Assembly (NCBI GenBank): GCA_046290225.1
Contig: JBKAGE010000038.1
Location: forward strand, 256,001 to 320,000
Length of the DNA: 64,000 nt
Direction: 5' to 3'
Origin: Bradymonadia bacterium
GTDB lineage: Bacteria; Myxococcota_A; Bradymonadia; UBA7976; UBA1532
The notes beneath the pieces were generated by a model, which ran no database searches, was not told where the DNA came from, and was given only the letters and a program-made list of their open reading frames with translations. The first letter of the stretch is position 1, and each line of letters opens with the position of its first letter. Positions 750-57,506 of the stretch are shown here, in pieces. The position numbers and the translations under genes were made by a program.

Positions 750-1153
750 AGAGAGTTTCGGGCACGGGCACGGGCACGGGCACGGGCACGAGTTGATTCG
801 GCTGTGGACAGTGCAGCCTGAGGCTGCATGTCTTGGAGCGAGTGTAGGCCTGCGTAGCCGGCCGGAGGGAGCGGAAAGACACCCGGAGGGCTGTCCACTG
901 GTCAACCTGACCCGTAACCCTACATGACTCCGCTCGTGGGTGTGTGATGGTGGAGGCTCTACTCAGCCCCATGTGTCTCTCATTGGAGGCTTTGTCCTCC
1001 ATACACCCCAAGACTTGAAACCTCAGGTCGTTCTGAAGCGCACCATCTCAGCCTCAATGACAACCATCGCCCTGAACCCAGGATGGGTCACGGGTCCACA
1101 CCCGAATCAACTCGTGCCCGTGCCCGTGCCCGTGCCCGTGCCCGAAACTCTCT
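750..1153 (+). repeat. Non-coding inverted-repeat element, copy 1: (GGGCAC)5 arms plus 188-nt conserved core (MITE/REPIN-like or structured RNA)
   Basis: 750-809 and 1094-1153 are reverse complements at 59/60 positions and each holds 5 hexamers. Core 909-1096 aligns without gaps to the reverse complement of 30771-30958. Confidence 0.9.
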
Positions 1154-7275: not shown

Positions 7276-10200
7276 TTACTGAGTCTCGCGCACCAGGATC
7301 ATCCACTGACCTGTGGCGAGGTTCGACGTGCCACACACCCGAGCGGCGTTGTACTCGCCCCAGTCGGTACCGTCGCTGCGGTTGCCCCGGCTGCCACCGT
7401 CGTTGAAGTCGATGATGAAGTCACCGCCATCGGCGCAGCTGTCTTCGGCCACCAGCTGCCCCTGGCCCCAGTTCACCCCAGCGTCGATCTCCATCCCTGT
7501 GAGGTTGTTGCGCCGTGCGGGGGGCGGCCCCACAGGCTCGTCGGGGGTGAAGAAGCAGCTGTCGGCGTCGATGCCGCTGACGATCTCGGCGTACCAACCA
7601 TTGTCGTAGAAGCTCAGGTCGACGGTCATCGGATCAAAGGAGCTGCCCGCCCGATGATCTCGACAGGCGAAGCGGATGTCGAAGCGATCGCCAAGGGCCA
7701 GCATGCCACCCCAGACGCCTGTGCTGAGGCCACGGGGTGCCAGCGAGCTCAGGTAGTCACCACCATCGATGACCCGATCGTCCATCGTACCGCTCCCCCG
7801 ACCGTTCGAGGGCACCGCGCTCGAGGCCACAGTGGTCCAACCACCACCATCGGTGTTCTGATCACACCACACCTCGAATCCACGTGACCCGGGATCGGGC
7901 TGGATGATCTGGATGCCACTGTTGACCTCGCCGGCCTGACGTGCGGCGAGACAGCTCGGGTAGACCACACAGTTCTCCACACCTTCGTCGCTGATGCCGT
8001 CACAGTCGTCATCGAAGGCGTTGCACACCTCCTGACCTGGCGGCTCGGGCGTCGCGTCGCAGACCGCCTCTCCTGTCTGGAGATCACACTCGATCTCGCC
8101 TTCGGCCTGGCACGCGCCGACGCCGACAATACAGTCGCTCTCGAGGGCGAAGTCTTCATCGGTGCTGCCATCACAGTCGTCGTCGATGCCGTTGCACAGC
8201 TCATCTTCTGGTGGAGCAGCCTCGGCGCTGCAGGTGGCAGCGCCATCAAGACCGCAAATCACCTGACCGGGGGCGGCGCACCCGCCGATGCCGCTCACAC
8301 ATGCGGTGCCGAGGTCGAAGCCTTCGTCTACAGTGCCGTCGCAGTCGTCGTCGAAGGTGTTGCAGGCCTCGATCTCCGGGGGCAGCGGATCGGCACCACA
8401 CACCGCCACACCCACGGCGCCGTCAGTGGCCGTGCCGCTGCGATGGAAGATGAACCGCTCCCAGATGCCGCTGGCGTTGACGATCTCCTCACCACATCGG
8501 AAGCCCGGACGAACCTTGTCGTCGCTGGTGTACCAGCACACCCGCTGGTTGCTCGCCACGTTCTCCACCCGATCACAGGTGAAGACGTCGATCTCCACCC
8601 CGGCAGGGGCGAAGCCCCAGGCGTAGTCGATGTTGAAGTACCAGTTCACCCCGTTGTGCTCGTTCTCCGGCCGGCGCTCGGCGAACTCCGTGGGCTCCAG
8701 GATCTCCGCCCTGTCACCCATGGCCGCCACCGAGAGCGCCTCGGAGCCGATGCGACGACAGCCCATGAGCAAGACGTCTTCGTCGCACCGACCCAGGATG
8801 GGGGGGTTCCCCGTGACAGGATCAGCATTGTTGATGGTGGTCTGCCCTTCTTCGTAGACCTCGAGCCAGCACAGTTCGAAACCACCTGCCTCAGCCTCGG
8901 CCACGGTGAGATCGTTGCGCACCCCAGTGAAGGCGAGGGCTTCCTGCTCGGGGGTGCCGCTGCACACGTTGACGCCACCAGAGACGCAAATGCCGACGCC
9001 CACCTGACAGGCCTGGCCGATCGTGTCGAAGCCCTCGTCGATGTTGCCGTCGCAGTCGTCGTCGAAGTCGTTGCACGCTTCGGGCACGGGCACGCCACCC
9101 GGATCCGAGCACACGATCTCGCCTTGAGCGTTGCACACCGTAGCGCCGTCGAAGGCGCACCGCCCGATGCCGCCACTGCACGGGTCGCCGAGATCGAAGC
9201 CTTCGTCGGTGGTGCCGTCGCAGTCGTCGTCCACCCCATTGCACACCTCGGCTTGTGGATCTCCGGCCACTGCGTCGCACACCTGCTCGCCGTCGGGACC
9301 ACAGACTGTCGCCCCCTGCACCTCGCAGGCGCCGATGCCCACGCTGCAGGGCGCCCCGGCGATGGCGTCTTCGTCGATGTTGCCGTCGCAGTCGTCATCC
9401 TCACCGTCACAGGTCTCCACACCGGGCTCACCGGGGGTGGCATCGCAGAAGGACCGCTCGAAGATCTCGTCGCACTGCACCACCCCCTCCACGGCGCAGA
9501 TCCCAACGCCCGCGAAACAGGGCTGGCCCACATCCGTGGGGTTCTCGTCGGTGAAGCTGTCGCAGTCGTCGTCTTCCCCGTTGCACAACTCTGGCTGGGG
9601 CTGGCCGAGCTCGGCATCACAGACAACTCGATCCCCACCAGCGGAGCACGCGAAGGTGCCCTGAGCCAGACATGCACCGATGCCGCTCAAGCATGGCTGC
9701 CCGAGGTTGTTGAAGTTCTCGTCGGTGGCCCCATCGCAGTCATCGTCGAGGCCGTTGCACAGCTCCGCCACAGGTGAGGGCCCCTGGGCGCCGCCGCAGG
9801 TGGTGCCGATGCGCTCGACGTCGCAGACCAGCTGACCCTCCACAGCACAGAGTCCGAGGCCCCGAATACAGGCCGTGCCGAGGTCGAAGTCTTCGTCGAC
9901 GCTGCCATCGCAGTCGTTGTCAGCCTCGTCGCAGCGCTCGTTCCTCGGGGTGATCTCGTTCTGGCACTGGCCAAAGGCCCCACCCGCACAGGTGCGGTTG
10001 CCGGCGCGACACAAACCCTGGTCGAGAGTGCCCTCGGCGCCGGTGTAGCAGACTTCAGTGAGGGCACCTCCGTTGGGGCCCTCGTCGAAGCTGCCGTCAC
10101 AATCGTCGTCGAGGCCATTGCAGGTTTCATCCTGAGGCTCGCCGATGTCGGCGACGCACGCCACGCCGCCGTTGCCATTGCAGGCCAGGGTGCCTTCGTC

Positions 10201-13200
10201 CCGGCAAATGCCGAGACCGGCGAAGCACACATTGCCGACGCCGAAGCCTTCATCGATGCGGCCGTCACAGTCTTCATCGAGACCGTTGCACCGTTCGTTG
10301 GTGGGCAACACTTGACCATTGCACTGGCCCAGGCTGCCTTCGGCGCAGAGGGCCTCGCCCCCACGACACAGACCCACGCCCTCGGTGCCCGCGGGGCCTG
10401 TGTAGCACACCCCCACCAACGGCTGACCATTGCCACCTTCGTCGACATTGCCGTCACAGTCTTCATCAGCACCGTCACATGTCTCGCCTCGGGACTCGCC
10501 AGCGATGGCAGAGCACACCACTGCGCCACCCTCACCACACTGCAGCACGCCATCTGCGGCGCAGATGCCGAGGCCCTCGGTACAGGCGTCACCCAAGCCC
10601 AGGCCCTCGTCGGCCTGGCCGTCACAATCATCGTCGAGGCCGTTGCACGCCTCGTCCACCGACACACCCGGCGTCGCGTTGCAGCTCAGGCCGCCAGCGT
10701 CGGGGGCACAGACGACCTGCCCCCCGCGACGACACTGGCCGACACCGGTGCTGCAGTCTGCGCCGATGCCGTCGAGGTTCTCGTCGGCCTGACCGTCACA
10801 ATCATTGTCTTCGCCATCACACAGCTCGGCCTGGGGGGTGATCTGGGCCTCACAGGGGCCAAAACCGCCCTGGGGCTGACACACCTGAGTGCCTGCCTGA
10901 CAGAGGCCCACGCCCTCGGTGCCTTCGGGCCCTCCGTAACAGGCCCGACGCTCGCCCGGCTCGCAGTTGCAATCCACCCCGTCGTCGATCACGCCATTGC
11001 AGTCGTTGTCCACGCCATCGCAGATCTCCAACGAAGGCAGGACCTGCTCGATGCAGGCGCCCGGCACACCACCGGCGCATGCACGTACCCCGGGGGCGCA
11101 CTGGCCCACGCCCTCTGAGCCCTCAGGACCGTCGTAGCAAGGGGCCTGAGCCTCGTCGGTGGTGCCGTCGCAGTCGTTGTCCTCGCCATCACACACATCA
11201 TCCACGGGGCCCTGCTGACCCACGCACAGCCCAGGTGCACCTGCGACACATGCCTGTCGACCGTCGGCGCACAGGCCTACTCGGCGGGTACCTTCGGGGC
11301 CGTCGTAGCAAGCCACCTCCAACAGGGCTTCGTCCGCCTGACCATCACAGTCGTTGTCTTCGCCGTCACACAGCTCGGGGCTCGGCGCTGCAGGCACAGC
11401 GTCACACCGCAGGCCCTCGCCGTTGGGCTGGCACACCACCACCCCTTCGCGGCGACATTGCCCGATCCCGAGCTGGCAGGCGGCCCCTACCCCTTCGAAG
11501 CCTTCGTCGGTAACGCCGTCACAATCATCGTCGATGCCATTGCAGCGCTCCTGAATGGGCTCCCCGGGCTGAGCGGTACAAATCACGCCGCCCAGCTCAC
11601 TGCACAGGAACACCCCATCGGCGGCGCAGGCGCCGAGGCCCTCGGTGCAGGCGCTGCCGGGGCTGAAGTCCTCGTCGAAGCGGCCATCGCAGTCCTGGTC
11701 GAGACCATCACATGTCTCGTCGACGGGGATCACCTGCCCCTCACACACACCAAAGTCGCCATCGACACAGGCCTGGCTGCCTCCCTGACAGAGCCCCTGC
11801 CCCTCGGACCCCTCTGGGCCCTCGTAGCAAATGCGCCGGAGAGGCTGGCCGTTGCCCCCTTCGTCGGTGCGGCCGTCGCAGTCGTCGTCGATGCCATTGC
11901 ACGTCTCCAACCCGGGGAAGCCCGGTGAGACGTTGCAGCGCAGGTTGCCGTCGAGATCACACTGCGACATGCCGACGTTCTCGCACGCCCCCACGCCTAC
12001 GGTGCAGGCCCCGCCAATGTCGAAATCTTCGTCAGTGATGCCGTCGCAGTCGTCGTCCAGCTCGTTGCACAGTTCCATTTGAGGCGGCAGGGGCAGCGCG
12101 TCACAGCGTGTACCCTGACCGTTGGGATCACAGCTGATGAGCCCCTGGACTCTGCACTGCCCCACCCCCTGCTCACAGGCCTGCCCCAGTTCGGGGAAGC
12201 CTTCGTCAAGGCGGGTGTCGCAGTCGTTGTCCAGGCCATCGCACCGCTCGACGTCGGGCCTCTGCTCGCCGACGCACAGTCCGAAGATCCCTTCGTCGTC
12301 ACAAGTCTGCACGCCGCCACGACACACCCCGATGCCCTGGGTATCCTGAGGCCCCCCGTAGCAGGGCCGCTCTTCCCCGAGGGCACAACGGCACTGCACC
12401 CCTTCATCGATGTTGCCATCGCAGTCTTCATCGATGCCGGAGCACTGCTCTTCTCCAGGCGGCAGCGGGTTCCCTGCGCAGATGAGCGCCCCACGCATCT
12501 CATCGCAGGCGAGCTGGCCCATGGCCGTGCACTGGCCGAGGCCCACGACGCAGGCCTCTCCAATCTGCTCATAGCCTTCGTCGACGTTGCCGTCGCAGTC
12601 TTCGTCGCCCTCACCACACAGCTCGAGGCCAGGGATCACCTGCCCCTCACAGGCACCGTATGCACCCTCGGTGCACACCCGGCGGCCGCCTGCGCAGGTG
12701 CCGATCCCTTCGGACCCTTCAGGGCCCTCGTAGCAAGGCTCAGTCAGCGGGTTGCCGCCTTCACCCTCATCGGTGGTGCCATCGCAATCGTCGTCTTCGC
12801 CATTGCACAGCTCGACCGACGGCGCCCCTGCGGTGACGTTGCACTGCACGTCCTGACCATTGGGGCCACAGACCATGGAGCCTTCCTCAGCACACAGACC
12901 AAGGCCTTCGGTGCACGGGTTGCCCAGCTCGGGGAAGTCTTCGTCGGCCCGGCCGTCACAGTCATCGTCTTCGCCGTTGCACACGTCTTCGGGCCATTGG
13001 CATTCGCCCCATGTGCCGGCGTCGCAACTCTGCGTGCCGCCGCCACACGGATCATCCGGGCAATCGCGGACATCACCATCCCTGCACTCACCGGCAGCGC
13101 CGCCCATGCCGCCCGCTTCACCACCTGCACCACCAGGGGCACCACCCTCGGCGCCCGCTCCACCTTCACCGCCCGCACCAGCACCCCCATCGATCTCGAT

Positions 13201-29016: not shown

Positions 29017-29688
29017 TCACCCGAAGTCTCGAGCCAACCCACGAATTTTGTGCTGCCAGTTGTAGACCACCTGTGTGTTTACCCCGAGGGCCTTCGCGGC
29101 ATCTGCCGGTGAGCACCCATCGACGTAGAGCGCTCTCAGAACGAGACGACCACGCTCGGGCAGTTGGGCGTCCAGATGGGCGAAGAGTGCCTTAGCTTCA
29201 GAGCGAGCAGCCACCTGACGCTCTGGATCTACCTGCTCGTCGGCGATTTGGCCCATGACCTCGGGGTTCACCGCCTTCTGGTCCCCTCCGCGCTTTTGAG
29301 CCAGGCGTTTGCGCAAGATGCTCACCACCGTGCGCTCGGTCACCACCCCAACATAGCCCTCAAAGCTGGCCCCACGATCAGGCTCGAAGGCCATCAGGCG
29401 CTTCCCGCTCTCTTCGAGCAAAGCCAGCCAGACCTCCTGGGCATACTCGTCTCTCACGTCAGAGGCTACAGGTCGACGCCAATGACGCCGTAGGGTGTAA
29501 CCCACCTGCGCCCGAACCACCGGCAACAGACGGCGGACCAGGCGGCGCATGGCCAGGGTGTTGCCCGAGAGGGCATCCCGCACCAGCGCAGCGTCGGCTT
29601 CGGGGTCTGAGGTTTGGCGTTCGTCGCGGCCTGCAGCCCCCACTGCCGCGGCGAACAACCCCAATATCCAGGAGAAGATGAGGGTCAT
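29017..29688 (-). CDS. ECF-type RNA polymerase sigma factor
   Basis: DAALVRDALSG, DEYAQEVWLALL, FEPDRGASFEGYV, and region 4 LPERGRLVLRALYVDGCSPADAAKALGVNTQVVYNWQHKIR. Confidence 0.88.
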   Translation of the reverse strand: MTLIFSWILGLFAAAVGAAGRDERQTSDPEADAALVRDALSGNTLAMRRLVRRLLPVVRAQVGYTLRRHWRRPVASDVRDEYAQEVWLALLEESGKRLMAFEPDRGASFEGYVGVVTERTVVSILRKRLAQKRGGDQKAVNPEVMGQIADEQVDPERQVAARSEAKALFAHLDAQLPERGRLVLRALYVDGCSPADAAKALGVNTQVVYNWQHKIRGLARDFG

Positions 29689-30593
29689 CAGGGCGGCTGC
29701 TCTCCTCGATAGGTGACGGGGATCTCGATCCAGCGCAGGGCGCTGTTCTCTCGGGCATTTTTGGCGGTGGTGCCTGCGAGCCCCTCGAGGCCCTTCGCTT
29801 CTTTGGCCAGGGCGACATACACGAAGCGCTTGCCGGTGCGCGTACCGAAGATCGCACCGGCTTTGGCCTTGAGCAAGAAGGCGCCCTTGCGCTCCTTGAT
29901 CTCGGTGGTGACGGCCTTCAGGCCCTCAGGGGTGTCAACAAAGACCTGCAGCGCGGGTGCCTTCCCGTCTGGGGCTTGCTCGGGCTTCAGGGTGATACGG
30001 ATCTCGCTCACAGCGTCGAAGATGCGCTTGGCGTGGGGGTCCTCCTCGCCACGGATCTCTTGAATCATGCCCTGAACGGCGGCGACCTGGTAAGGCGAAG
30101 GCGGGGGCAGGCTGTCGGGGCGCATCAGCACCAGCACCAGGGCAGCAGCGGCGGCGATCACCCCGCTCCCGGCCCACGTGGTCCACCTTTTGGGAAACGG
30201 CACCACATTGCTGGGGCCCTCCTTGATGTTGGACGCTTCGCTGGAAGAAACAGCCTTTGCGATTCCGGCGCCTTCACCTTCGAGGAGGGTGTCGGAGTTG
30301 ACCTGTTTCTCGATCTCGCCCACGGCCCACTGCTCCATGTCGCCAAGGGGCGCATCGAGGTCGTAGAGCATGGCTCTGGCGGCAGGATCTTCGACGAGCG
30401 CCTGCTCCACCTCGGCGGCCTCTTCGTCGCTGAGCGTGCCAGCCCGTAGAGCGAGGATGGTCTCGAGGGGTACCCCCTCGCCCTCTGGCTCAGCCGCTTC
30501 TTCATCTGGTGACGATGGCAAGTCTTCGAGCACGCCACCGAGGGCCCGGAGTCGGGCGTCGAGGGCTTCGTCGTTGGGTGTGTGCTCGGTCAT
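29688..30593 (-). CDS. Putative membrane-spanning anti-sigma factor
   Basis: ASD-like ETILALRAGTLSDEEAAEVEQAL (Zn ligands absent), NVVPFP, TM helix WAGSGVIAAAAALVLVLM and an extracytoplasmic domain. Its TGA overlaps the sigma ATG; RBS AAGGAA. Confidence 0.7.
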   Translation of the reverse strand: MTEHTPNDEALDARLRALGGVLEDLPSSPDEEAAEPEGEGVPLETILALRAGTLSDEEAAEVEQALVEDPAARAMLYDLDAPLGDMEQWAVGEIEKQVNSDTLLEGEGAGIAKAVSSSEASNIKEGPSNVVPFPKRWTTWAGSGVIAAAAALVLVLMRPDSLPPPSPYQVAAVQGMIQEIRGEEDPHAKRIFDAVSEIRITLKPEQAPDGKAPALQVFVDTPEGLKAVTTEIKERKGAFLLKAKAGAIFGTRTGKRFVYVALAKEAKGLEGLAGTTAKNARENSALRWIEIPVTYRGEQPP

Positions 30594-30717
30594 GGCGCGT
30601 TCCTTTTGGACCCTGCACGGGCCCACCGGCAGTCTGACACATTCTGACGATGGGCTCACCTTCTGTGGGTGAGCTCACTGGGATCTACGTGAAATGGGGT
30701 GGTGCTCTTTTGGTAAG

Positions 30718-31017
30718 AGAGAGTTTGTCGGGCACGGGCACGGGCACGGGCACGAGTTGATACATATTCTGACCCGTGGCCCTTCCTGAACTCAGGGCGA
30801 AGGTTACAACTGAAGCTGAGATGATGTGTTGTTGAACGACCTGAGAGTTCAGGTCTTGGGGTGTATGGAGGCCAAAAGTCGCACTGAGCAAAGCGTGGGG
30901 CTGGATGAAGGCTCCACCATCACAAACCCATGAGCGGAGTCATATAGGACAACGGGTCCAGATATGTATCAACTCGTGCCCGTGCCCGTGCCCGTGCCCG
31001 TGCCCGAAAAACTCTCT
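30718..31017 (-). repeat. Non-coding inverted-repeat element, copy 2: (GGGCAC)4/5 arms plus 188-nt conserved core
   Basis: Arms 30718-30777 and 30952-31017 are complementary apart from one hexamer and a few mismatches. Core 30771-30958 is homologous to 909-1096 in reverse orientation. Confidence 0.9.
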
Positions 31018-33442
31018 ATTTAAGCTGCATTGCCGAGGTATCCACAGCCCACGCCTTACCGAACTGAGTAATGGTGGCCACGAGCTGGGCTTTCTCGATG
31101 TTCACGATGCCCTTGGGCACCGCGAGATACTTGAAGAAGGCGCTGTCACCGGGGCGATAACCCTGACCATTGCTGGGCACAGCCAGGGGGAGGTAGGCCT
31201 GCTTGCCGTATTTGTCGGTGAGGAGCAGGTAAGGGCTGGTGAAGCGGGTGGTGGCGATGTCGTACTTGCTGCTGAAGTTGATGCTCACATTGAGGTAGGG
31301 GAAGAGGTTGAGTACGGCGCAATCTGGACAGAGGGGCACTCGAGGCTGCGGGCCCACAGCACCAAGCGCATCACGACGCAGTCGGTCAGGCGGCTCACCC
31401 ACAATCTGTGCAGGGCCAAAGCGCACATCATCATTGTTGGTGCAGTCCGTCCAGTCTACGCATGCATCATCACTCGTACCTGGCGCGTTGGCGGTGCACT
31501 GAGGTGCCGGCTCGGCCCCCTCCGGATCATACCCTGGCGGATTCCCGGGGAACGCATCACACACCTCCAGCCACTCCGCACATCGATCGATGACATCAGG
31601 GCCTTGGCCTTGAGCCAGGCACCCAATGGCGGAGAGCAGCTCCCCACACTGCACCAGGTCATCAGCCGCCCCGACATTGAGAGCCCGCACTGGATATCCC
31701 TGCCATGTTGAACGGTTGAGGTCATATGCGGTCAGGTAGAGCAGATCGCTCAGCTGGGCCCCACTCAACCGGGGTACTAGAGGGTCTGCGCTCCGCGCAG
31801 CGCCCAGATATGCCAACGCCCGTGCGAGGGCGCCCGTGGTCAGGGCAGCAGACACCGAAGTGCCCGTGTATGCTTCTGGGGCACCCGCGAGCGCACCTTG
31901 GGGTGTGAACACGTGCGCCCCTGGTGCGACGAGGCGGGGCTCTGCCAAGGCTCGGGGGATCGACACACCTGTCGGGGTGCCACGGGCATTGATCGCGCCG
32001 ACAGCAAAAGACAGCGCCTCCCCCGCAACACATCCTTGCTGTTGATCAGACTTCACAGTGGTGCGGCTGTACTCACCAGGAAACAGCATTGGAGGCCGTG
32101 TAAGCTCTCCTCCGAGCCACCACCCATCTGTGCACGCGTCGAGGGGCTGGTTCTCATCCACCTTGTGCAACTCGGCCCGCTCACCGTTCAGTGGGCGATT
32201 GCCTGCAGCGGCAACGGCGAGGATCGGCCTCGCTGCAGTGTCCTGCTCCTGGGCGACAGCGAGCATGTAGCGCACCACGGCGCCAACTCCGTCCTCCTCT
32301 ATGGCACAGCCCGGGCCACGAAGCGTACGTACACGCTCGTATTCTGGTAGCCAGCCGAGGCTGAGGTTCAACAGCAGGGGCCGGGCGGGGTCGAGCCCGT
32401 ACACGGCCTCATCGATGGCCACACCCGTGAAGGCGGTGACCCCGACCCCTTCTGCGTCCATCACTTGCCAGGAGAAGATCTCTGCCGCTGTATCCGGCAC
32501 CATCTGACGGATAAAGCCCACCATGGCGTCACCATGCTCGTTCACCCCAGCAGCAGCAGGATCAGGGTAGCGCCCCACGACGTCCACAGTGGGGATCGCC
32601 GCGTTGGAGACCCCAGTGTCGATGAGAGCGATTTGAGGCAGATCCCCCGCTGGTGGAGCGGGGACCTGCTGAGCAGGAGCGACGCTCATATAGTCGAGGT
32701 GCCATCGATCGACCCCCGCCATCGGGCTGACGTTGCACGCCTCTCGCCCGATCTTCACCTGAGCGGCCTGAGCTGCGGTGAGACCATAGTCGGGGGCGAG
32801 CTGTGACACGATCTGACGCACCTGGGCGACAGCGTTGCATTGGGCGGGACCCAAGATGGGCAGGTAGGGATCCTGAGCGATGCCCTGGCCCACAAATCGA
32901 ATACGCCAGAACCGCTGATGGCCATCAGCACGCCGACCATTCACATCTCGAAAAGGCAACACCGACGTCACCTCAACATCGACGCCGTTGCCGATGGCTG
33001 TACGGCATGGATCCCCACACGCATCGGCAGCACAAAACCAGGACTCGTCCACCACCCCAGTGAGCGCATCGTCGAGCTCTGTTTGGAACGCGCCCAAGAG
33101 TGGGTTCTGGGGTACCTCACTCGGCGCAGGTAGCCAAAGTGGGAAGTCCACGAAGAGCACTCGGGCTTCAGCACAGCTGTAGGGCGCCTCCGGCTCACCC
33201 GCGATCCCCAAGCTGGGGGGGGATGGATCACAGGGCCCCGGCGCAGGCTCTTGAGGCGTAGCAGACTGTATACATTGATTCTGAGCAGCACTCTGGCCCG
33301 CGAGGAGCAGGCCCGTGATCATGAGCAACATCACACGTGAGTGCTGCATGAAGGCTGAATGTTGTCGTGCTCGGTGCATCTTCATCCTCTCCGTCACCTG
33401 ATGGGCCAGGGCCCCCAATGCCCTGAACCTACGCAGTTCCAC
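31016..33442 (-). CDS. Secreted S8 (subtilisin-like) serine protease
   Basis: Triad IALIDTG / EHGDAM / TGTSVSAA; oxyanion AAAGN; signal peptide ending LLAGQSAA. The true start is probably a downstream Met. Confidence 0.85.
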   Translation of the reverse strand: MELRRFRALGALAHQVTERMKMHRARQHSAFMQHSRVMLLMITGLLLAGQSAAQNQCIQSATPQEPAPGPCDPSPPSLGIAGEPEAPYSCAEARVLFVDFPLWLPAPSEVPQNPLLGAFQTELDDALTGVVDESWFCAADACGDPCRTAIGNGVDVEVTSVLPFRDVNGRRADGHQRFWRIRFVGQGIAQDPYLPILGPAQCNAVAQVRQIVSQLAPDYGLTAAQAAQVKIGREACNVSPMAGVDRWHLDYMSVAPAQQVPAPPAGDLPQIALIDTGVSNAAIPTVDVVGRYPDPAAAGVNEHGDAMVGFIRQMVPDTAAEIFSWQVMDAEGVGVTAFTGVAIDEAVYGLDPARPLLLNLSLGWLPEYERVRTLRGPGCAIEEDGVGAVVRYMLAVAQEQDTAARPILAVAAAGNRPLNGERAELHKVDENQPLDACTDGWWLGGELTRPPMLFPGEYSRTTVKSDQQQGCVAGEALSFAVGAINARGTPTGVSIPRALAEPRLVAPGAHVFTPQGALAGAPEAYTGTSVSAALTTGALARALAYLGAARSADPLVPRLSGAQLSDLLYLTAYDLNRSTWQGYPVRALNVGAADDLVQCGELLSAIGCLAQGQGPDVIDRCAEWLEVCDAFPGNPPGYDPEGAEPAPQCTANAPGTSDDACVDWTDCTNNDDVRFGPAQIVGEPPDRLRRDALGAVGPQPRVPLCPDCAVLNLFPYLNVSINFSSKYDIATTRFTSPYLLLTDKYGKQAYLPLAVPSNGQGYRPGDSAFFKYLAVPKGIVNIEKAQLVATITQFGKAWAVDTSAMQLK

Positions 33443-33478
33443 GACGACTTCTTTTGGCGTCGGCGCTTTCGAGGCTGA

Positions 33479-36196
33479 TCACCTCGACCACAGCCGAAAG
33501 GCTCTCCACACCTCGTCACCACGCTGCTGGGCTCGCTTTTGGGCCTCGTGAAAGGCCCTCGGCGTGCCCTGGGTAGGATACAGGCGATAGAAGTCTTTCA
33601 TAAACTCTAAAGACTCCCCATCCTCAATTGGCCGTTCGGTCCCCACGACGAACCGGGCACCTGCGATCAAGAACGCCTCTGGTAGGCCAATGCGAGCACC
33701 CCCTTTGACATTGCCTCCCTTGCCGGTGTCGCACCCATTGAGCACCAGAGTCTCTGCTTTTACTTGTGTCTGAAGCACGTCTTCCACGCTGAGGGTCTGA
33801 CGCTCACTCAACCTGAGGTGTGAGGTCCAAGGATCTCCGTGTCGAATCACGCCATGGCCTGCAAAGTGAACGAGGCGGCTGTGTTGAATGCTCTCGATGA
33901 GGTTCGCTCGGGTGGCTTCGGAGCCAACCTTGAGGTTGATCTGCAGTGCGTTGTTGCCGAGCAGATCATTCAACGCCTGAGCCTCAACTCTCGCACCAGG
34001 TAGATTGCTTTCGGGGTCTGCCAGAAGCGTGAATGGCCCTTCGGAGAGCGCAGACGAAACACCAGGCACAGGCACCATGCTCGTCACGAGATGGCGTGCA
34101 CTGAGTGGCTGGCCGTTCAACTCGAGCTCAGCAAGATCGAACTCACGGAGCGGGCTGGTCAGCAAAACCTGAGTGCCCTCCCCCAGGGTACGCTTCGTGA
34201 GCCATGCCTTGAGCGTCTTCGAGTTGCACTCGCTCAAGTAATGATCTTTGAATGCAACCGCCTCGGCGGCTCGATGGAGCACCGTACAGGCATCGCCTGA
34301 GGGATAGACGATGAGTTCAAAGGTGTGACTACCCGCTTCAGGGCGGATCGCATAGCGAGTCGAATGCGTATCGGAGGGCTTGAAAAAGGCGCTCTCAACC
34401 TCTTTTTTCAGGCTGTGTTTGATAGCCTCGGCCTGACTGTTCAATACCCTAATCTCACGCTCATCATATGCCAGCGCGATCTCTGATTCGAGTGCCTCTA
34501 GACGCTTCTTGAGCAGCCTGGCTCCTTGACTCTCAGACACACTCCGTTGGGCAACCTGATACAACACAGTATAAAAATTGGATACGGCGAGCATGATAAC
34601 AGTCTCCACACAATCGGTATCCATCTGGGATTGGCAGAACCCCATCGCCTCTGAAAAGACATCACCATTGTCGCCAATGTAGCTCGAAAACCCGTGTCGT
34701 GCCGAGGCATTTGCCGCCGACGCCACCAATAGCCCCGACGCCTTGAGATACATTGTACGTGCCTCTACATGCGCCTTCTGCGCTCGATACACACGTGCGA
34801 GCCCCAAAGTAGCCCGCCAGACGAGATCTGATGCCTCACTCCGGGTCTGGCTCAGTTCGGCATCGAGAAGGGCCTGATAGCCACTCATGGCCTCTGATAC
34901 CTGCCCACGTGAGAACGCCAGCTCAGCTCGAATGAGACGCCAGAGCCTCTGGCTTTCGGGCTTCATACGGCCTTTTAGCCTGTTCAGATATGCCTCTGCC
35001 CTTTCGAGTTCTCCATATTGGTACTCGAACCACGCTAAGTTAAGCGCTGCTGAAACCTCGACATCCTCTTCTGACAGTGCCTTTGCATGCTCTAAGAGAT
35101 CAACCAAAGCCAGTTTCGACTGTTCGACCTTCTGATTTTGCTCAGATGCTGCATTGGCATTAAGTGCAATGCCTAGAATGCCAGCTTTGCCCTGCAGGCA
35201 GTAGGAAGCTGGAAGACCTTCACATCCCTCGACAATACTCAACAATTCAGGCAATAGCTGGCTGACCCCATCGAGTCGCCCAAGTCGATAGTTCACATCA
35301 AGAAGTTCCAGTCCCAAGGCACTTGTTTCCATTGGACTACCCCCTCCTCTGGAAACAGTATATGCCTCTCGATACTTCAATAGAGCTCTGTGAAACTCAG
35401 ACTCAGTAATGAGTTTGAGGGCTTCGTAGTAGAGTCCCCTCGCCCGCCCCCCATAGTCCACCTCCAGCACATATCGCTCCCCCGCCTTCAGCATCCCCGT
35501 CACATCATCCAGTCGCATGTCCATCAGCGCGTAGTACGCACACGCCCGATGTCGCGCCCCTGCCTCTGAGACCCAGCCCAGCGACTCCGCAGTCTTCGCC
35601 GCCTCGAGCCACATCTCGCAGGCCTCCCCCTGTCGCCCCAGGCGTCCGAGCACGCGGCCCAGCTCCACCTGAGCCCACATCAGGTCTTCGCCCTTCAGCT
35701 CGGTAACCCGCGCCCTCAACAGCGCTTCCGCCGGCTTCAGCTCGCCTTTCTTGCGCAGCTTCACCGCCTCAGCCTGGGTCGGGCGCTCACCTGGAGGCAC
35801 GTCCCAGCGGGCGCGCCAGCGGCCCACCTCTCGCTCGTGGGCGTCTACCAGTCGCAACACCCCAGAGCTCAGCTCAGGCAGGCCCTCGGCCTCCACTTGG
35901 AACAGCCAGCCCCCCATGCGCTCCAGCAGCTTCACCTTCAGCGGCCGCTCGGCCCCTTGCGCGGGTGCCCAGAGCACCTGCCAAGCCTTCACTTGAAGCG
36001 GACCCTCCACCCGGACCGATGGGCGCTTTTGCGCGTCGAACAGCCAGATCTCATCGCGATGAATCGCGCGGTAGCCCCAGAGTTGTAGCGCCACCGACTC
36101 CATCGGTGGAGGCGCGGGCTTTGGCGCAGGCGGAGGCTCCGAGCAAGCCCCGAGCAGGGCCATCCAGACGCACAGCCAGATCGTACGGTGACCCAT
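33479..36196 (-). CDS. Lipoprotein with TPR-like repeats and C-terminal CHAT (caspase-like) protease domain
   Basis: Lipobox LGAC; TPR-like helices; ADPESNLPGARVE, VHFAGHG (His), VLNGCDTG (Cys), GLPEAFLIAGA and WRAF; RBS AGGAGG. Confidence 0.88.
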   Translation of the reverse strand: MGHRTIWLCVWMALLGACSEPPPAPKPAPPPMESVALQLWGYRAIHRDEIWLFDAQKRPSVRVEGPLQVKAWQVLWAPAQGAERPLKVKLLERMGGWLFQVEAEGLPELSSGVLRLVDAHEREVGRWRARWDVPPGERPTQAEAVKLRKKGELKPAEALLRARVTELKGEDLMWAQVELGRVLGRLGRQGEACEMWLEAAKTAESLGWVSEAGARHRACAYYALMDMRLDDVTGMLKAGERYVLEVDYGGRARGLYYEALKLITESEFHRALLKYREAYTVSRGGGSPMETSALGLELLDVNYRLGRLDGVSQLLPELLSIVEGCEGLPASYCLQGKAGILGIALNANAASEQNQKVEQSKLALVDLLEHAKALSEEDVEVSAALNLAWFEYQYGELERAEAYLNRLKGRMKPESQRLWRLIRAELAFSRGQVSEAMSGYQALLDAELSQTRSEASDLVWRATLGLARVYRAQKAHVEARTMYLKASGLLVASAANASARHGFSSYIGDNGDVFSEAMGFCQSQMDTDCVETVIMLAVSNFYTVLYQVAQRSVSESQGARLLKKRLEALESEIALAYDEREIRVLNSQAEAIKHSLKKEVESAFFKPSDTHSTRYAIRPEAGSHTFELIVYPSGDACTVLHRAAEAVAFKDHYLSECNSKTLKAWLTKRTLGEGTQVLLTSPLREFDLAELELNGQPLSARHLVTSMVPVPGVSSALSEGPFTLLADPESNLPGARVEAQALNDLLGNNALQINLKVGSEATRANLIESIQHSRLVHFAGHGVIRHGDPWTSHLRLSERQTLSVEDVLQTQVKAETLVLNGCDTGKGGNVKGGARIGLPEAFLIAGARFVVGTERPIEDGESLEFMKDFYRLYPTQGTPRAFHEAQKRAQQRGDEVWRAFRLWSR

Positions 36197-54101: not shown

Positions 54102-57506
<3,405 letters not shown>

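Follow-up and report, generated by a model that had tools for sequence, protein, structure and literature searches.

Partial covariation between the arms of a gene-less foldback repeat family in a Bradymonadia genome

Introduction

The window analysed here, a 64,000-nucleotide stretch of a contig from a Bradymonadia bacterium, carries two copies of a foldback element (copies 1 and 2; Table 1), which raise the question of why the two arms of one copy resemble each other where the copies differ. An earlier note on this DNA described TCGG(C/G)TGTGGAC on each arm of copy 1, and five and five hexamers there against four and five in copy 2; both descriptions hold. It also called the arms of copy 2 self-matching, and they read as described there: the left arm reads GAGTTGAT-ACATATTCTG-ACCCGT and the right arm GAGTTGAT-ACATATCTGG-ACCCGT, so that ACAT...ACCCGT is found on both, but three mismatches lie inside the 10-nt segment. 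The two window copies alone are weak evidence for covariation, because a match of the ACAT/TCG class is expected by chance in half of the copies (16.0 of 32).

Table 1. Features of the two foldback copies and of the neighbouring genes in the window
Feature	Position	Strand	Remark
Copy 1 of the family	750..1153	.	inverted relative to copy 2; first base directly follows the TAG stop at 747-749
101-nt arm module (T unit)	809..900	+	copy 1, on one arm only
Left arm terminus, copy 2	30718..30729	+	AGAGAG and T-run; without the outer mini-hairpin module
Left hexamer array, copy 2	30730..30753	+	4 x GGGCAC
Conserved arm core, left arm of copy 2	30754..30761	+	GAGTTGAT
Left 10-nt variable segment, copy 2	30762..30771	+	first 6 bases as in the right arm; 3 mismatches in total
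Left arm inner end, copy 2	30772..30782	+	family-wide covariation weakens here
Interior, copy 2	30783..30946	.	non-coding, common to the family; mean pairwise distance 22%
Right arm, copy 2	30947..30975	-	inner end; 10-nt variable segment 30958-30967; core GAGTTGAT 30968-30975
Right hexamer array, copy 2	30976..31005	-	5 x GGGCAC
Right arm terminus, copy 2	31006..31017	-	final two bases within the TAG stop of the subtilase gene
Neighbouring subtilase-family ORF (Peptidase_S8)	31016..33442	-	3′ end abuts copy 2
Neighbouring ORF without Pfam match	29688..30659	-	directly upstream of ECF sigma factor ORF (29017-29688)

Results

The foldback family and its genomic setting

Across the genome we found 135 arm matches, of which 96 form 48 inward-facing pairs, i.e. 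about 48 copies (family 1), and 39 are unpaired, three of these being duplicates or false. At its outer end an arm has AGAGAG or AGATCAG, in some cases preceded by an outer module; the T-run, the (GGGCAC)n array, the core GAGTTGAT, the 10-nt variable segment and finally an inner end of 11 nt follow inwards. The interior is ~165 nt long in most copies. An HMM search that started from the interior returned 52 matches, namely 43 known copies and nine interrupted by a contig end or an insertion; every end that is present has an intact arm. Variant hexamer units are rare (5 of 448), compared to interiors that lie 13-15% from consensus. A 101-nt hairpin module with 35 blast hits in the genome occurs as one to three tandem units in 10 copies, on a single arm in nine of them and on both arms (two units per arm) in the gene-bearing copy at C72:82329-83299; the arms of copy 1 diverge after 60 nt because it carries this module on one arm only. 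The outer mini-hairpin module is absent from both window copies. We rejected the idea that the outer modules are an independent target repeat, since they lie on the element in 32/32, 12/13, 11/12 and 22/28 of their occurrences.

Folded as ssDNA, positions 30710-31025 give a predicted energy of -94.7 kcal/mol (z -11.0). A conserved fold of the interior was not found in the 11 copies folded, where the consensus is weak, compensatory pairs are few and z is mostly near 0. The Rfam search gave no score near the gathering threshold, and the promoter and terminator scans gave none. Copy 2 and the other scored copies sit between predicted protein genes, not inside an rRNA gene. Gene 3′ ends, as placed by a home-made gene caller, are faced by 55 of 85 scored element sides; convergent-gene spacers hold 16 of 37 copies compared to 160 of 1094 background spacers, and divergent-gene spacers 3 of 37 compared to 405 of 1094. 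Orientation relative to transcription is even (27 versus 23). In the window, copy 2 interrupts a same-strand series at 29017-36196 of a CHAT-domain protein, a subtilase, an unknown ORF and an ECF sigma factor, lying between the second and the third. The window also contains two long arrays of ~170-nt coding repeats with Cys/Asp-rich units, on opposite strands (7985-12987 and 54600-56820), of a kind usual in repeat surface proteins.

The arm pattern matched once among 40 relatives and twice in metagenomes, none of the three being this element, and close strains were not found among the 40 relatives or in the metagenome scan. Four copies, the two in the window among them, have sharp ends on either side, and none of these four shows a target-site duplication; the other 44 copies are ragged or broken. 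Repeats break up the assembly, and many of the contig ends fall within family 1 elements. Inside the (GGGCAC)n arrays, 14 left and 10 right ends of an unassembled multicopy element stand at contig termini (e.g. C7, C8, C17, C35, C41 and C47), and this element looks like a site-specific IS that targets the array. At C50:55594-57092 a 1.4-kb insertion with a ~400-aa ORF, transposase-like by eye, breaks the interior of one copy near an arm, and at C35:240438 an unpaired arm leads into the apparent end of a tRNA gene ~60 nt inward.

Arms covary within copies, in part

The check suggested in the earlier note, a genome-wide comparison of arm identity within and between copies, was run on those 32 copies, from 49 pairs (one hand-added), in which both arms carry GAGTTGA, the 101-nt module is absent and the interior can be aligned. 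The two 10-nt segments are identical in 14 of the 32 copies, whereas 50,000 permutations gave a mean of 2.16 and never more than 8; away from contig ends they are identical in 11 of 24 copies (1.8 expected). Further out, the two arms agree in T-run (15/28, 7.8 expected), terminal 8-mer (12/28, 3.5 expected) and outer module class (16/25, 7.3 expected). Hexamer number does not covary (20/28 the same, 19.4 expected). The 10-nt segments are non-identical in 18 of the 32 copies, copy 2 included, with four to seven mismatches in 10 copies, and some copies combine an ACAT arm with a TCGG arm. Arms that diverge independently, which the note had named as the refuting case, are thus present in many copies, yet the excess of identity is still large. 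Within-copy arm covariation is real but partial. Of the excess inner mismatch that the second family shows (see below), family 1 has a weaker trace at positions 24-30 (p 0.023), a marginal result in one of five windows.

Matching is patchy and independent of interior ancestry

Arm alleles and interior distance are uncorrelated (Mantel r -0.11 and -0.02), and the closest interior pair, 4% apart, has no arm allele in common. The 64 arms hold 27 alleles, eight of which occur in concordant copies. Fifteen alleles occur exactly two times among 132 arms, and for three of them the two arms belong to the same copy (p 2e-4). Agreement of the outer and of the inner arm is unlinked (outer-same/inner-same counts 4, 7, 4 and 4), four copies match inside and not outside, and no outside-in polarity was found inside the 10-nt segment (p 0.21). 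Mismatched copies have nearer interior relatives, with a median nearest distance of 0.093 compared to 0.16 (p 0.024); the better matching of interior-isolated copies is consistent with in-place copying and is also predicted by survivor bias. The note had suggested that one arm is templated from the other during mobilisation. Templating fits as short local patches, but templating of a whole arm per move is not supported, because outer and inner matches are unlinked, the 101-nt module is one-sided in 9 of 10 copies and copies with near relatives are more often mismatched.

G·U pairs have no strand bias (39 versus 32). Outer arm expansion into unique flanks was not evident in family 1, where a copy's own extension outdoes those of the other arms in no more than 3 of the 16 long cases. 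One exactly flipped allele pair exists (C2:1951 and C41:93), and general flipping of family 1 interiors was not found, with flipped and straight values of 8.43 and 8.46. The final k, as suggested by contig overlaps of 99 nt, exceeds the longest exact arm-to-arm match (93 nt), and assembly collapse is unlikely for this reason.

A second family is matched outside and mismatched inside

The locus C77:107007-107857 carries the genome's other PF05635 gene between 195-nt arms of stacked mini-hairpins. This second family has 94 arm matches and 38 usable paired copies, one 372-nt pair having been dropped. Its outer 60 columns covary, and columns 16-30 are identical in 13 of 38 copies, compared to 0.7 expected. 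Perfect outer runs of at least 20 nt occur in 11 of 38 copies, compared to 0.4% of cross pairs; for 10 of these copies the run is longer than that with any other family 2 arm (e.g. 44 versus 14, 38 versus 2). The outer ~60 nt anchor these private tracts, which extend outward into ragged, copy-specific sequence.

The inner arm behaves differently. Three modules in columns 61-180, with classes set by eye from the same alignment and the gene-bearing copy excluded, differ within the copy in 29, 29 and 33 of 37 copies, compared to 22.5, 23.2 and 24.5 expected (p 0.002, 0.015 and 0.001). Three alleles of the innermost module are common; they occur in all six mixed arrangements, and only four copies are matched, a pattern that simple inversion of one master could not produce. 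Modules A and B are each on the minority side in 5 of 37 copies. In family 2, the outer arms agree within copies, and the inner arms disagree there more often than expected by chance.

Each arm family encloses one four-helix-bundle gene

The family 1 copy at C72:82329-83299 encloses a 117-aa four-helix-bundle ORF (TIGR02436, PF05635) at C72:82594-82947, and the family 2 gene is near C77:107267-107524, giving one PF05635 gene per arm family. The model of the C72 protein has a pLDDT of 91.8; its Z scores are 17.8 and 17.7 with S23-family structures, 15.5 and 14.6 with Avd chains, and up to 14.9 with unrelated helical bundles. Among 78 related loci with enough flank, inverted arms lie within ~300 nt in 48 and arms in direct orientation in five. 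In a set of 58 related loci, in which a multicopy Chlamydiae MAG is represented by a single locus, 33 have their own partner as the best-matching arm, and the two arms share the dominant hexamer in 31 of 38. These comparisons span different genomes and do not show within-genome copying.

Gene-less interiors have no homology to gene-bearing interiors above shuffles, and the idea that they are remnants of the gene cassette was rejected on this ground. We infer from the arms, the part they have in common, that the gene-less copies may descend from the cassette. This Chlamydiae MAG (contigs CAWCVY01) has at least 21 copies of a four-helix-bundle cassette, some in tandem; in 20 of 21, the arms lie farther out and enclose a degraded transposase (DDE_Tnp_4 in the one copy scanned). 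By eye, one base differs between the arms, and in 18 of the 20 copies for which both arms were found the difference is confined to the upstream arm.

Mini-hairpins of DNA type and candidate mobilising enzymes

Among 87 family 1 arms, GCGNAGC or GCGNNAGC is present in all 65 outer modules on the outward strand and in none on the inward strand, and among the 76 arms of family 2 the GCGN(N)AGC mini-hairpins number 75 on the outward strand and 1 on the inward strand. Such sequences form stable DNA mini-hairpins that are much weaker as RNA (PMC13037366), and their strand specificity fits a role for ssDNA. The SRM pattern was found in 0 of 48 family 1 and 0 of 38 family 2 copies.

Candidates for a mobilising enzyme were sought among known families. 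RAYT genes (PF01797, Y1_Tnp) gave no match in the genome, which is 99% complete and whose assembly misses multicopy elements, RAYTs being described as single-copy. No ISL2-type transposase (DDE_Tnp_4, PF13359) was found in the assembly, where multicopy IS bodies are unassembled. A single-domain GIY-YIG protein (PF01541, Ssn) was not found, the sole match being within a 625-aa frame, and an sbcD-like match scores below the family cut-off. The PF00078 search found two reverse transcriptase ORFs that are not inside paired arms and are on a different contig from the four-helix-bundle genes. These two ORFs (540 and 453 aa) are convergent and retron-like by eye (C79:178175-181200), with a short family 2 arm remnant between them, and each is preceded by an ORF that we take to carry a SWIM-like motif. 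A repeated sequence, its body unassembled, stands at several contig termini (C5, C23, C62, C65, C66 and C72) and appears to resemble the 3′ end of a group II intron.

Discussion

Origin of the arm matching

From the sequence comparisons, we consider it fairly probable that the element is a gene-less dispersed foldback repeat, with arms in common with a four-helix-bundle cassette, in which matching arises from repeated and patchy DNA-level copying of arm onto arm, probably while the arms pair as ssDNA. The copying may be polymerase template switching or hairpin-directed repair, and it would compete with exchange among the other ~130 arms; the partner arm would have been the last donor roughly 40% of the time, (14-2.2)/(32-2.2). 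Arms identical close to the spacer may be unstable or non-functional and be turned over, which would leave the inner modules mismatched. Such turnover near the spacer could reflect palindrome fragility from closer arm identity or, in line with a proposal made for REPINs (PMC3116915, Fig. S11 legend), the need to keep local hairpins free. In the accessible text of the sources, closer arm identity makes palindromes more fragile (PMC7999016), and template switching homogenises and expands imperfect arms (PMC13100816). The four-helix-bundle protein may be a family-specific binding factor. Points against this reading are the missing outside-in polarity in the 10-nt segment, the survivor-bias account of the better matched isolated copies, spacers longer than those admitted in the cited yeast survey and the failure to find a mobilising enzyme in the searches above.

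Templating could instead occur once, at the birth of a copy, if the free end of an ssDNA foldback intermediate were trimmed and resynthesised on the other arm and later exchange between copies scrambled the result. We think this unlikely, although it would account for the anchoring of the perfect private tracts of family 2 in the outer ~60 nt and for the strand-specific DNA mini-hairpins at the outer ends, and the nearly decay-free hexamers beside diverged interiors are as expected if the copies moved recently. The tracts, however, are not nested from the end, as the four copies matched only inside illustrate; copies with close interior relatives are the more often mismatched; and the one-base difference in the Chlamydiae MAG stays upstream. 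Selection on arm pairing, the other cause put forward in the earlier note, could act on RNA, with the arms forming an RNase III substrate like that of the 23S rRNA intervening sequences or a 3′-end stabiliser, and with mismatched copies being lost. The preference for gene 3′ ends and convergent spacers, the better matching of isolated copies and a PF05635 ORF in terminal inverted repeats, the layout of the RNase III-excised intervening sequences (IVS; PMC4990558), all speak for it. Nevertheless, selection of this kind appears improbable as the cause: copies carry five to seven mismatches or a one-sided 101-nt module, neither G·U pairs nor orientation to transcription are biased, selection could hardly act on private changes of one base, present on both arms, in a stem of -95 kcal/mol, and the inner arms of family 2 are matched less than chance.

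We also give little credence to shared descent from a few symmetric masters, or to merging of both arms by the assembler. The limited allele pool would suit the former, and the fragmentation of the assembly at repeats, with many contigs ending within elements, the latter. Descent is contradicted by arm alleles that are independent of the interior tree and by the variety of concordant alleles. An assembly artefact is at odds with a longest arm match below the contig overlap and with covariation that persists away from contig ends, and it would not yield inner modules less alike than chance. Local arm-to-arm copying, the reading that we favour, leaves room for a further and more tentative proposal, which is possible but in our view doubtful: the PF05635 genes may head an undescribed class of ssDNA foldback elements, with one protein per arm family, in which the pentamer would read the mini-hairpins or hexamer arrays, host repair would match the outer ends, and the inner arms would be kept mismatched so that local hairpins form and not one long stem.

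Relation to known systems

Bacterial MITEs such as Correia, RUP and ERIC are short non-coding multicopy elements with terminal inverted repeats. The present element is MITE-like in having terminal inverted repeats, no ORF and many copies; however, it has no target-site duplication in the four copies scored, its outer ends are ragged and its arms do not decay with the interior. Inverted repeats homogenised by template switching (the Ripley/Lovett model; PMC13100816) are alike, as far as the accessible text describes them, in the copying of arm onto arm and the expansion of arms into flanks, and their occasional spacer inversion may have a counterpart in the single flipped allele pair of family 1 and the minority-side modules of family 2. 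Variants private to a locus and present on both arms, as in that model, were found here in the doubleton alleles of family 1 (3/15) and in 10 of 38 family 2 copies. In contrast to those repeats, ours form a dispersed family with 120-165 nt spacers, exchange between copies competes, and matching stops or reverses near the spacer; the spacer of ~165 nt compares with a filter of <=70 bp in the cited yeast survey.

REPINs and RAYTs (PMC3116915, PMC8049555), according to the available parts of these papers, share with our families the dispersed extragenic inverted doublets, conserved ends, a variable spacer, compensatory hairpin changes and one resident gene per repeat group, and a less stable 'clover' fold has been proposed as the active form of REPINs (PMC3116915, Fig. 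S11 legend). Here, in contrast, no Y1_Tnp gene was found, the arms contain hexamer arrays or stacked mini-hairpins over 60-195 nt, and the product of the resident gene is a four-helix-bundle protein without known catalytic activity. The share of symmetric REPINs is the subject of File S4 of 10.1101/119743, which may bear on prior quantification of REPIN arm matching. The 23S rRNA IVS with an S23p/PF05635 ORF (PMC4990558, as far as accessible) have the same protein family inside terminal inverted repeats and short tandem repeats beside the ORF. This layout is present at C72:82329-83299 and C77:107007-107857, and copy 2 has no ORF. Unlike the IVS, our cassettes lie between protein genes, dozens of copies are gene-less and the loop motifs are those of DNA-type mini-hairpins. 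Ssn nucleases with SRM/NTS repeats (PMC11893778, in its accessible part) also combine a small gene flanked by its own hairpin repeats, many gene-less repeats and ssDNA recognition, but single-domain GIY-YIG proteins and the SRM pattern were not found here, the latter in either family. Finally, the DGR accessory protein Avd (10.1101/2023.10.23.563531, seen in its accessible part) has a similar fold, with Z scores below those of the S23 family and close to those of unrelated bundles, but the two reverse transcriptase genes of this genome are not within paired arms. Further comparison literature includes the accessible text of PMC3337134 and PMC4679880. A literature search with most subscription journals outside its scope found no report of PF05635 cassettes that carry repeat arms and lie outside rRNA, nor of covariation of their arms.

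The process behind the covariation is of a known kind, homogenisation of inverted-repeat arms having been described already, whereas the gradient from matched outer to mismatched inner arms is unexpected and the element class was not found in print. The S23p/PF05635 protein has no known function according to the accessible text of PMC4990558. A bacterial family that is matched outside and mismatched inside is a natural read-out of the persistence of long palindromes, and the pairing of one gene with each arm family, together with the strand-specific DNA mini-hairpins, gives the S23p/PF05635 protein a defined candidate substrate.
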